Shown piece after piece: positions 6,684-52,986 of a stretch of DNA of 64,000 nucleotides. The notes under the pieces are model-generated. The model saw nothing but the letters and a program-made list of their open reading frames with translations, did not search any database and was not told the DNA's origin. Position 1 is the first letter of the stretch. Every line of letters begins with the position of its first letter. The DNA comes from Octopus sinensis (lineage: Eukaryota), in the NCBI RefSeq assembly GCF_006345805.1, contig NC_043004.1, positions 40,486,001 through 40,550,000 on the forward strand. The letters are read 5' to 3'. The position numbers and the translations under genes were made by a program.

Positions 6684-6933
6684 CATATACATGTGTGTGT
6701 GTGTGTGTGTGGGTGTGCATGTGTGTGTGTATGCATAAATGCATATATGCATACACATATATATTTAGAATATATACATATACATACATAGAAAGGGCAT
6801 CCAGCCATAGAAACCATGTTAAATCAGACTGAAAACTGGTGAAGCCCCCTGGTTTGCCACCTCCGGTCATGCCCTCCAACCCATGCCAAGATAAACAACA
6901 GACATTAAATGTTGATGATGATGATGATATATA

Positions 6934-7325
6934 AGTGCAGGCATGGCTGTGTGGTAAGAAGCTTGCTTCCCAACCACATGGTTCTGGGTTCAGTCCCATT
7001 GTGTTGCACCTTGGGCAAGTGCCTTTTACTGTAGTCTCAGGCTTGTAAGTAGATTTGGTAGACAGAAACTGAAAGAAGCCTGTCGTATATTTGTATGTGT
7101 GTGTGTTGTGTGTTGTGTGTGTGTGTGTGTGTCTGTGTCTGTGTGTGTCTGTGTGTGTGTGTCTTTGTGACTGAGCTTGTCTCCCCATCACCGCTTGTCA
7201 ACTGGTTTTTGGGGTGTTTACATTAGTTTAAAAAAATAAGCCTTGGGGTTGATTTGTTCAACTAAAACCCTTCAAGGCAGTGCTCCAGCATGGCCGGAGT
7301 CAAACGACTGAAACAAGTAAAAGAA
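6934..7325 (+). mobile_element. SINE family A
   Basis: Same head, body and tail as 3206-3607. Confidence 0.8.
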
Positions 7326-25924: not shown

Positions 25925-26388
25925 TTCTTTTATTTGTTTCAGTCATTTGACTGTGGCCATGCTGGAGCACTGCCTTTAGTCAAACAAATTGAACCCAGGA
26001 CTTATTCTTTGTAAGCCTAGTACTTATTCTATTGGTCTTTTTTGCCAAACTGCTAAGTTACAAGGACATAAGCACATCAGCATCAGTTGGCAAGCCATGG
26101 GGTGGGGGACACTAACACAGACCCCCCCACACACACACACACATATATACAATGGGCTTCTTTCAGTTTCCGTCTACCAAATGTTGATGTATAATACACA
26201 TGTAGGACATGTCCTATAAGAAATTCATTAGACAGAGAATCAAAAAATATTATTATTTAATTTTCACAAGGCTGTAGTCGGCCCAAGACTATAGTAGAAG
26301 ACACTTGTCCAGGGTGCCACACAGTGGGACTGAACCCGGAACATGAGGTTGGGAAGCAAGCTTCTTACCACGCAGCCATGCCTGCACC
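25925..26388 (-). mobile_element. SINE family A (interrupted)
   Basis: Reverse complement of family A with a ~90-bp insert near 26180-26265. Confidence 0.75.
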
Positions 26389-26961
26389 TATATATACATT
26401 CATTTGTAACGTGGCTTTATATGTTGTTTATATTCATGTTTATGCTATATATATTCGCCTACATGATGACCGTAAATATGTATGTATATGTTTATGCTTT
26501 GTCTCTGTATATATATTGCTTGTATAAATATAGAACTGTTGATATGAGAGACTGCATGTGTGTGTATATGTATATATTTGTAATATATCTATGAATATGT
26601 TTTATTTATATATTTGAGTGTGTATGTATGTGTGTATTTGTACTATACATATGAATATGTCTTTTATCTATATATTCAACTGTGTGTGTGTGTGTATGTA
26701 TGCATATTTGTGTGTATGCCTGTATATTCTACACGTCTACATAATGAATGTGTTTGAGCATCCATTCACGTGTATGTATGTTTGTATACTCTATCTATGA
26801 ATGTGTTTGTGTTTGTATTCAAGTGTGTGTGTGTATGTGTTTGTGTGTGTGCATGCATGCATGTACATGTTTATGATGTATGTATGTGTGCATGTATTGA
26901 ACTGTATTATGCCTGTCTATGAGTGTATAGATGCGTGTATGTATGTGTATATATATATATC

Positions 26962-39200: not shown

Positions 39201-39450
39201 TATATATATATAAATAAATGAAAGAATGGAGTCGAACGACGATTTAACAATCGTCGTTACTCCATTCTTTCATCTATTTATAGTAAAAAAAACACACAAA
39301 TTTCCACACGAAAGCACGTGATCTCTGCCCTTGGCATGTAGCTTCAACCGTGTTTTCTGACATGAATTTGCTACCCAGGTATTCGTTAACTGAATTATCC
39401 ATACTAGGATAATTCATTCAACTACTTAATATATATATATATATATATAT

Positions 39451-40260
39451 GTCATAAGATACAGTGTACATTTAAACACATGAGGAACACCTAAGTTCTA
39501 TAACCACAAAAATTAGGGATAAAATTTGACAGGAACGAAATGAAAAATAAAAACATTTTACCATCTAGTTTCCTGGACCAATTGGTTTCTGATTTTAGTT
39601 TAGCATGTAAATGAACCCACCAGGTGTAATCGTCTTCAGCAGGAACACCTAGGGTTAAACGTATACACACGGGGCAATCAAACTATGTGCCCCTTATTTA
39701 TATGTTCTAACTTTTTCAAAATCTACTGTGCAGCTGCAGTCCTTCACCAGCAATAGAAAAAATGCCAACTTTTAAAACCGAAAATTATCCAAAAACTTAC
39801 AATATTTCATGATATCAAAGTGAAATGGAAATTAATTGGTCCAGGAAACTTGATGGTAAAATGTTTTTATTTTTCATTTTGTTCCTGTCGAATTTTATCC
39901 CTAATTTTTTGTGGTTATAGAACCTAGCTGTTCTTTCTAGCATGTTGAATCCTATGAGTGGATTCCTTATGTGTTTAAATATACACTGTATCTTATGACT
40001 ACTATATAGTCCTTTGGACTAGATTTTTACACGTTAGACCACTGGAAATGTAAATTTTAATTAATTTCCATTTCACTTTGATGTGATGAAATATTTTTTT
40101 GGATAATTTTCGGTTTTAAAAGTTGGCATTCTTTATTACTGGCGAAGGACTGCGGCTGCGCGGTAGATTTTGAAAAACTAGGACATATAAATAAGGGGCA
40201 CGTAGTTTGATCGCCCCGTGTGTATACGTTTAACCCTAGGTGTTCCTGCTGAAGACAATT
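39451..40260. mobile_element. Hammerhead-bearing element: two oppositely oriented, circularly permuted partial monomers
   Basis: 39451-39583 inverted at 39834-39998; 39628-39837 inverted at 40059-40260; complete hammerhead at 39570-39645 (-). Confidence 0.8.
39570..39645 (-). ncRNA. Type I hammerhead ribozyme motif, intact core
   Basis: UUCCUG-CUGAAGA-C-GAUU(33 nt)AAUC-A-GAAA-CCAAUUGG-U-C-CAGGAA; 6-bp stem I; stem III is the palindrome ACCAAUUGGU; GUC cleavage triplet. Confidence 0.8.
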
Positions 40261-40884
40261 GGGAAAAAACGTTTTAACCACACAGCCATGCCTGCATCTA
40301 TATACAACCACACCTGCATCCCATATATGGGAAATGTGCAACAGGCATGAAAAATATATGCAGCAAGTAATTATGATGCAAACCAACTTGATACTAGAAA
40401 TAGCACCAAATATTGGTAAAAAGTTTAGAAAGCCACTGATAGTTTTTTTAAGATTTACCAAGAGGAAAGCCTGAGGCTTAAAATTTATGTGGTGAGGTTA
40501 TGCAGAGAAAGAATAAAATATTGAACAGGAATAAGAATTGAAATTACTACAAAGTTATAAATCATACAAGTGAAGTTTGTCCTAGAAAAAAAATCTAGAA
40601 TATAATTTTGCCATAAAAAAATGTCATTTGTGGAAGAATAACAGATTTAGATTAAATAAAAATATGAATAGACAATATCAGAATAGTAATAAAAAGAATT
40701 TGGAAAGAAAAACTGAGTTAAACAATTGTAAAGAAGCTAGTTGGAAAATCACATTGAGAGACGAAAGTATTAACTATACTGGGAAGTAATGTTTAGGGGT
40801 TCAATCCCCTGTTTACAATATATATCTAGATTCAATTAAAACTATAGGAAATATATGATAACATAGGAAAAGTGGTTCCCTTTT

Positions 40885-45290: not shown

Positions 45291-45997
45291 TCAAAAATAT
45301 ACATATATATATATGACAAGCTTCTTTCAGTTTCCGTCTACCAAATCCACTCACAAAGCTTTGGTCAGCCAGAAACTATAACAGAAGACACTTGTCCAAG
45401 GTGTCACACAGTGGGACTGAACCCAGTACAATGTGGTTGGGAAGTAAGCTTCTTACCACGCAGCCATGCCTGCACCTATGTATGTATGGATGGAGGTTTG
45501 TATGACATGTGACTGGATGGATGGATTGATCAATGAATGTGTGCATGTATAAGTTTATGCATGGATGAATGTATGCATGCATGTGTGTATATGTGTATGC
45601 ATGTATTCATGTATGTATCTATGTATGGATTGATGTGTGTGTGTATAAGTGTATATATTTATGAATGTATGTGTGTGTGTGCATGTATGTATGCATTTAT
45701 GTATGTATGAATGTATTTGTATATGTGTATGTCTGTCTGCATGTATGCACAGTCACCATGAATGACAACCTTATTAAATTGGAAATTCCAATTTGCATAA
45801 TTATTGCTATTCATTTGCAGTTAAGTTAATTAAATAATTAATGAAGCATAAAGGGGCATACTGGGCAAGTAACAGTGCCTAAGAGCATTCTAAAAGAGCT
45901 GAAACTAGCCATGCCAATACCATTTCGTATATCACATATATACATCATATATATATATATATATATATTAGATAATATATATATATAATATATTATA

Positions 45998-52168: not shown

Positions 52169-52986
52169 TATATATATTAAAATCTTAGGGTAGCAAGAAT
52201 ATTCATCAAAAAATTATTAGTTACCAGTGGTCTAGTGAGAAAGAAAAAATTAGTCAATAGACTATAAATTATTCAGAGAAGAATACAGTGTATGTTCAAA
52301 CACAAAAGAGATACCTGAAGAATAGGATATCTGACTCGCTAGAAAGAGCAGTTAAAACTCCAAGCCACCAATTGTTGTAATTCTGAAAGTGATTGAACAA
52401 TAAAAAACTTTCACCTATATATAAAATAATGGGAACACAGAAAACATAGTTGATATTAATGCTTTATATAATGTAAATGAGTTTCATGAGATGAGCAAGA
52501 CATCTGTAATGTGAACAAATGCCACATGTTCTCATTCATCGACAATACTCAGCAAAATACTGATTGTGACAAAAATACAGACTGTTTTTTTTGTGTGTTA
52601 CTTTTTGTAAATATTTGGTGTGTAGATTCTGCATACTAAATTATCTGCAGATATGACCTTGCCTTTGCTTGAAACCATGCAAAACCACCCTGTCCACTCT
52701 GCTGGGTGGTTGGTGTTAGGAAGGACATCCAGCTGTAAAAATAAAAACTGTTCCAAAACAGACACAGAAGTCTGGTGCAGGATCCTCTTTGGCCAGTTCC
52801 TGTCAATCTGACCAACCTATGCCAGCATGGAGGACGAATGCTAAACTATGAAGATAATGATGAAGATTGTATAACCTTGTCAGATACGAGTTGGGTCTGG
52901 AACTGATTGACTGCTCTCATACCTTTTGGTAATGTCTCATGCCTTTTGACATACCTTTCAATTGTGTGTGTATATACATACAGTAT

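Follow-up and report, generated by a model that had tools for sequence, protein, structure and literature searches.

How the Octopus sinensis genome came to hold two opposed arms of one non-coding repeat, each passing through a predicted RNA cleavage site, is the question raised by positions 39451 to 40260 of the stretch analysed here (the window; 64,000 nt, NCBI RefSeq assembly GCF_006345805.1, contig NC_043004.1, positions 40,486,001 to 40,550,000 of the forward strand). The window is AT-rich and full of microsatellites, and the locus consists of two head-to-head arms of a single 471-nt unit. The original prediction, made from the sequence alone, of interleaved inverted repeats (A-B-A'-B') is borne out by three pairings in a self-BLAST of the window: 39628-39837 inverted versus 40059-40260 (90%), 39485-39601 inverted versus 39817-39933 (90%) and 39442-39487 inverted versus 39963-40008 (89%). 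The head-to-tail monomer of ~470 nt (~407+64 nt) that it proposed agrees with the 471 nt obtained from the window.

The locus and its predicted ribozyme

With position 1 of the unit defined as the first base past the predicted cut, the features of the locus are:

39429..39450, no strand: (TA)n microsatellite, the target adjoining the 3' end of the left arm (from the sequence)
39451..39837, minus strand: left arm, unit ~218-478 then 1-158, with its 3' end at fixed site A
39570..39645, minus strand: complete type I hammerhead, predicted cut 39576^39575
39828..39837, no strand: head-to-head (5'-5') arm junction, AATT at 39834-39837 exactly common to both arms
39834..40260, plus strand: right arm, unit 471-478 then 1-425
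39999..40008, plus strand: fixed 3'-end site A, traversed internally in the right arm (from the 3' ends of the family)
40080..40094, plus strand: fixed 3'-end site B, traversed internally in the right arm (from the 3' ends of the family)
40243..40255, plus strand: helix I 5' strand and CUGAAGA core of a second, truncated hammerhead (from the sequence)
40259..40304, plus strand: 3'-terminal fragment of a common repeat, presumably SINE-like (from matches to copy ends)

As predicted, the minus-strand piece from 39837 to 39451 reads upstream region, complete hammerhead (39645-39570) and downstream region; it is without ~30 nt that are present in the right arm (the equivalent of 39934-39962), an internal deletion that sits between 39485 and 39484 with TTC on both sides. 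The right arm does begin in helix III, 8 nt upstream of its predicted cut (39841^39842), then traverses the downstream region followed by the upstream region, and stops 5 nt past CUGAAGA (40249-40255), the motif after which it had been said to end. The strand switch was rightly placed at AATT microhomology, a 4-nt exact overlap inside a 10-nt imperfect match (39828-39837), and overlaps of 1-14 nt are found at 34 of the 54 head-to-head junctions of the family. Positions 39230-39428, which border the TA target on its left, belong to another repeat of very high copy number; in each of the four DNA runs, its contig depths add up to far more than single copy.

The repeat carries an RNA motif predicted to be self-cutting, which on the minus strand (39645-39570) reads, in order, UUCCUG, CUGAAGA, C, GAUU, a loop, AAUC, A, GAAA, CC, AAUU, GG and UC^CAGGAA. 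Helix I (UUCCUG/CAGGAA) has 6 bp, the core CUGAAGA lies at 39639-39633 (C3-G8 in the window copy), helix II opens with a C-A mismatch and continues as GAUU/AAUC with a long loop 2 before GAAA, and helix III has 3 bp and a palindromic AAUU loop. A hammerhead descriptor has one match in the window and none in 100 block shuffles; an Rfam scan of the window at the gathering threshold gave no matches, hammerhead included. The hammerhead fold (-9.6 kcal/mol, z +0.73) lies 1.2 kcal/mol above the lowest-energy fold (-10.8 kcal/mol), and the energy of pairing between two helix-III strands is -14.4 kcal/mol, as is expected of ribozymes acting as dimers (PMC4209133, in the part examined). One complete and two partial hammerheads are present in the window copy. 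The type I motif and its helices are seen both there and in 86 aligned arms, in which 89.5% of helix cells are paired (84-96% per helix) versus 26-45% for slid controls; the core helices show little two-sided covariation, and the two-sided changes, mostly at the 3-8 pair and the loop-2 hairpin, are not independent events.

A dispersed family with two fixed 3' ends

The family was searched in the 2.72-Gb assembly, where a 27-mer across the cut site occurs exactly 169 times (reversed control, 0); first-look candidate counts of 876-1961 should not be read as copy numbers. The first 150 loci represent 116 independent places, a non-random sample made up of the best matches to parts of the window copy or the first 30 pattern hits. 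Besides the 471 nt of the window, unit lengths of 478 nt (family majority) and of 473 and 484 nt (between natural sites) were found. The unit has a GC content of 0.32 and no ORF (longest stop-free stretch, 78 codons), and a Pfam search with a 146-aa stretch gave no match. The passage from downstream to upstream region (40000-40059) is spanned in all 40 best-scoring places, the window included; with 39960-40130 as query, 35 of the 40 best places reach at least query position 154 and 5 stop at 135. The adjacency, foreseen as constant across copies, is therefore general and no one-off local rearrangement.

Arm 3' ends concentrate at two sites ~90 nt apart, site A (unit 140-172, 76 of 177 ends) and site B (unit 237-258, 64 of 177), so that 140 of the 177 fall within 11.5% of the unit. 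TATATA occurs within 40 nt of 65 of 78 site-A ends and 53 of 65 site-B ends, versus 10 of 46 other 3' ends, 31 of 189 5' ends and 12% of background intervals. Head-to-head pairs make up 54 of the 116 loci: 27 have both ends at fixed sites (25 A+B, 2 A+A and 0 B+B, P=2e-6 versus independence), 26 have one atypical end and 1 has two. Two fixed 3' ends on (TA)n together with this A/B pairing are a Penelope-type footprint. In L1 twin-priming, the inverted arm ends where the main arm starts, with microhomology at the junction. The octopus family resembles this in its junction microhomology and in the geometry of 12 of the 26 one-atypical-end pairs (3.9 expected), but it is without a poly(A) tail and most of its other pairs use the two fixed sites.

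The window copy itself is 207 nt off the twin-priming geometry, and its right arm ends at unit position 425, at neither site A nor site B and without TA. The arm is joined via TT to the last 46 nt of the SINE-like repeat, the 5' part of which is missing (40259-40304 matches the ends of copies at 6928-6973, 26349-26394 and 45437-45482, 80-83%). The TT junction is likely a deletion junction, and the 3' end of the right arm was probably lost by deletion; from the A+B pairing rule, we infer priming at site B followed by this loss. None of the listed contigs from four DNA runs bridges the 40260 junction; the repeat family is present in all four, and the right flank is single-copy.

Both arms of the window copy are from the same subfamily. 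They differ by 6.3% over 190 nt, at the first percentile of comparisons with other loci (median 12.8%); the second overlap, of 85 nt, falls at the 27th percentile and is uninformative. Across the family, overlapping parts are closer within a locus than between loci, both inverted (0.070 versus 0.110, n=54) and tandem (0.071 versus 0.116, n=41), in comparisons that are not mutually independent and with pooled means that include one triplicated locus (L118).

At that locus (G000:C16:1475080-1478145, positions 144-1718), one A+B two-arm insert with its TA flanks is tandemly triplicated, with 96% between copies, differences that are mostly indels and a core GAAA changed to GCAA. The triplication is a local duplication or an assembly artefact; a reading as a three-round array was rejected in favour of triple local duplication of a single A+B insert. 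L118 is left out of the crossing, hazard and junction counts and counted once among pairs, but is still included in the 177-end tallies, the first core-variant tally and the editing tally. Insertions multiplied with their flanks by segmental duplication (L110-L112 and L114; L010 and L030) were likewise counted once.

Nearly all family copies are shorter than two units and few hold two cut sites; a double-site pattern gave 5 hits, one of them a diverged arm that has three sites. Locus L233/L237 (G000:C9:85069291-85070646), of a diverged subfamily (75% to the majority), is a candidate source locus, L233 having a 2.4-unit arm with three cut sites and two intact CUGACGA cores as well as an inverted B arm. 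A diverged fragment of a related repeat lies on the minus strand of the window at 52213-52415 (profile E 3e-11, ~71% to 39925-40048) and ends beside a short TA run. Another two-arm, TA-flanked family (L217 1174-1600, L222 5336-5929) is remotely like the A-B region of the unit (E 0.004), which may be the part recognised by the reverse transcriptase (RT). A family contig covering the hammerhead, from a related copy, is found in three of four presumed-RNA runs at depth 87-175, the contigs being uninformative on strand, ends or circularity; no listed piece from the four runs spans the whole unit. Two further candidates were rejected: A-to-I editing carried over into the genomic copies (on the sense strand, 13.3 A>G versus 13.0 T>C per 1000, P=0.81), and a TATA-like box at 40186-40193 as promoter, which is absent from diverged subfamilies.

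Template and mode of copying

The 5' ends of the arms bear on the template. Across 164 ends, with L118 removed and left truncation by arm selection taken into account, the 5'-end hazard is nearly flat (0.0077 per nt) and a fixed 5' boundary is absent. Unit positions 476-10 hold 9 ends versus 3.5 expected (P=0.011), and among 37 bins the one at positions 1-13 ranks first, followed by one at 287. Clustering of 5' ends at the cut site, which the original prediction proposed to check, is seen only as this modest excess just downstream, which fits some cleaved linear template; of 36 arms at risk, 28 continue across the site. The idea that the start of the plus-strand arm near the cut reflects cleavage is not well supported: a start 8 nt upstream is not obtainable from cleaved RNA, and the zone in which it lies (unit positions 464-475) shows no excess (4 ends versus 4.7 expected). 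Five loci, L118 aside, cross the cut site twice and one diverged arm three times; indel openings at crossings number 4 in ~118 (0.034) versus 0.115 per arm elsewhere. Such seamless crossings mean that the template extends through the cut site as a circle, as an uncleaved multimer or by precise jumps, and they support the predicted circular or tandem template as a pair of alternatives. Subfamilies show no difference in how often arms stop at the cut site (5 of 24 versus 3 of 12) under a nearest-neighbour assignment that is unreliable.

The reading that we prefer, with some reserve, is that the window copy is an insertion of a dispersed non-coding ~475-nt hammerhead repeat by Penelope-type two-ended copying of a likely circular monomer. 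A genomic copy with two ribozymes would be transcribed, and its RNA would cut itself with the assistance of a dimer and be ligated into a circle; a borrowed Penelope-type reverse transcriptase-endonuclease would cut a TA-microsatellite target and prime from both broken DNA ends, using site A for one and site B for the other; the cDNAs would be joined by their 5' ends at AATT, and the ~300 nt at the 3' end of the right arm would later be deleted with part of the neighbouring SINE. The Penelope-type step is highly probable; the circularity of the RNA template is somewhat favoured. Linear copying only shortens arrays, yet two-site arrays are rare and subfamilies succeed one another, so length must be regenerated; on these grounds, and because the junction is seamless, a circle is preferred. 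As circles, two natural monomers fold better than shuffles (z -3.6 and -2.1, 20 shuffles each).

An uncleaved linear multi-unit transcript, inserted by the same two-ended Penelope-type route with a ribozyme that is weak or irrelevant to copying, is a possible but less probable template. Poseidon insertion in vitro is unaffected by hammerhead mutants and has uncleaved RNA as its main substrate (PMC11167929, in the part examined), the L233 array has three sites in units 2.2% apart, the U3-G8 lineage was amplified, and the measurements made here fit a circle and a long tandem RNA alike. The shortening of arrays under linear copying, with two-site arrays rare and subfamilies successive, speaks against such a transcript, its start is not marked by any pile-up of 5' ends, and A8 goes with U3 in the core, a hint of retained activity.

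Core positions 3 and 8, tallied in 100 arms from the first 116 loci, are C-G in 54, U-G in 29, U-A in 9 (three of them from L118), C-A in 3 and other in 5. A FastTree tree was made from 97 arms, a set enriched by a search with a U3-A8 copy, with core positions 3, 7 and 8 excluded. In it, 45 of 47 U3 arms group together with weak support. Nested in this group are two clades, one in which 16 of 17 arms are U3-G8 (support 0.957) and one in which 20 of 27 are U3-A8 (support 0.865), the second taking in every U3-A8 arm of the tree. A8 co-occurs with U3 in 20 of the 47 U3 arms of this enriched set, versus 3 C3-A8 arms, an association that probably reflects one or two events. To judge from the sequences, the core pair changed from C3-G8 to U3-G8 and U3-A8 in subfamilies that continued spreading. 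A U3-G8 mismatch should weaken hammerhead cleavage. The U3-A8 core is known from Schistosoma Penelope-like elements (PLEs; PMC4209133, in the part examined), and a literature search for cleavage kinetics of C3U found none. It is conceivable, if rather doubtful, that the switch from C3-G8 through U3-G8 to U3-A8 shows self-cleavage to be selected in master copies, dispensable though it was for insertion in vitro, and that every insertion stems from a dimeric Penelope enzyme that reads one ribozyme-made circle from both ends of the DNA break, using two start sites dedicated to this.

End-to-end jumping is known for the RT of R2, and an RT that copied self-cleaved linear monomers in this manner would regenerate the tandem junction. 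The 5'-end excess just downstream of the cut is what such copying could leave, but the crossings are seamless and hold fewer indels than other places do, and successive rounds within an arm mostly share subfamily alleles (0.15 versus 0.40 mismatch at polymorphic sites), which makes this account improbable. An origin of the locus as a solo pseudo-LTR left behind by an autonomous PLE, as two separate insertions or by DNA-level inversion is largely refuted and very improbable: opposite hammerheads 100-700 bp apart have been ascribed to truncated PLEs (PMC4209133, in the part examined) and the right end of the window copy is atypical, but arms pass from downstream to upstream region without an ORF, the adjacency is general, the two arms of the window copy are closer to each other than in 99% of other comparisons, and the two-arm form is common to 54 of 116 loci.

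Relation to known elements

The preferred circular-template reading calls for a Penelope-type enzyme from elsewhere, and no RT+GIY-YIG ORF between pLTRs is present in the window copy or the unit. The genome holds RT+GIY-YIG ORFs of 775-781 aa, in elements that have (TA)n at their ends and contain short motifs resembling a hammerhead. BLASTN, TBLASTN and nhmmer against 50 GIY-YIG loci found no autonomous partner sharing unit sequence and no homologous pLTR; of these loci, taken from 147 matches and 5029 candidates, 30 were short and 20 were longer stretches. The lone weak unit hit among them, in L217, is to a distant repeat that was inserted there separately, and a short-loop hammerhead pattern gave one hit, a member of the retrozyme family. 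The 3' UTR/pLTR of a 781-aa RT+GIY-YIG family with intact ORFs (L212, L213 and L216) contains, by eye, a hammerhead-like motif of minimal form, its core U3-A8, a short distance ahead of the (TA)n end. Directly behind a PLE, at L228 5799-8227 (G000:C19:9246799-9249227), a very young (99%) array built from another unit of ~545 nt in tandem and inverted order lies between TA runs; hammerhead scans gave no match in it.

The family is a further member of the metazoan non-LTR retrozymes, an element kind known in animals, and the window copy is an incomplete member without two whole ribozymes. As in those elements (Cervera and de la Pena 2020, PMC7229834; Li, Clavereau and Pollet, bioRxiv 10.64898/2026.07.22.740005; in the parts examined), a non-coding, low-GC (32%) head-to-tail unit carries a type I hammerhead; no LTR, PBS or ORF was seen, copies are dispersed and PLEs are present in the genome. 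Circular RNAs are described for metazoan retrozymes (PMC7229834), and 8 of 9 Xenopus dimers were without cleavage in vitro (bioRxiv 10.64898/2026.07.22.740005), as far as the examined parts of these sources go. The octopus unit (471-484 nt) exceeds those of coral, mussel and axolotl retrozymes (220-390 nt) and lies within the 51-972 range of a later survey, in the parts examined of these works. Unlike the active elements of Li et al., defined in the part examined by at least two consecutive complete ribozymes, the window copy has one; since nearly all copies fall short of two units, a two-ribozyme tandem criterion misses them. Plant LTR retrozymes differ in having a type III hammerhead in their LTRs, along with a PBS and a PPT, whereas the octopus hammerhead is of type I and no LTR-bounded copies were found. 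Two fixed 3' ends with head-to-head arms are not described for metazoan retrozymes in the portions of the literature examined. A literature search for an octopus or cephalopod retrozyme found only PMC8557442; published supplements may list such families.

The features of a Penelope-mobilised element are present in the family: fixed alternative 3' ends, 5' truncation, an inverted arm and a microsatellite target. In the parts of these sources examined, PLE copies show partial tandems, an inverted 5'-truncated arm and a (TA)n bias (PMC8557442), and the Poseidon protein, a predicted dimer, has two RT start sites and cuts and extends both strands (PMC11167929). The octopus family is like PLEs (Poseidon PAc, PMC11167929; Naiad and Neptune, PMC8557442) in its partial tandems, inverted 5'-truncated arm and (TA)n/AT-rich target, and like PLE pLTRs and their minimal hammerheads (PMC4209133, in the part examined) in its palindromic short helix III, extra base before helix II and U3-A8 variant. 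It shares with PLEs two alternative 3' ends, which lie ~90 nt apart here as against a 30-40-nt tail, and differs from them in being without an RT or GIY-YIG ORF. Its 6-bp helix I and long loop 2 (~35-45 nt) with an inner hairpin are unlike the PLE minimal hammerheads in the sources examined.

The class of element is already known, and a single locus adds little alone. How retrozymes are mobilised and what role the Penelope hammerhead has are posed as open questions in the examined parts of PMC7229834, PMC11167929 and the 2026 preprint. With hundreds of insertion footprints, a strict A+B rule and three natural cores (C3-G8, U3-G8 and U3-A8), this octopus family makes both questions testable with short RNAs.
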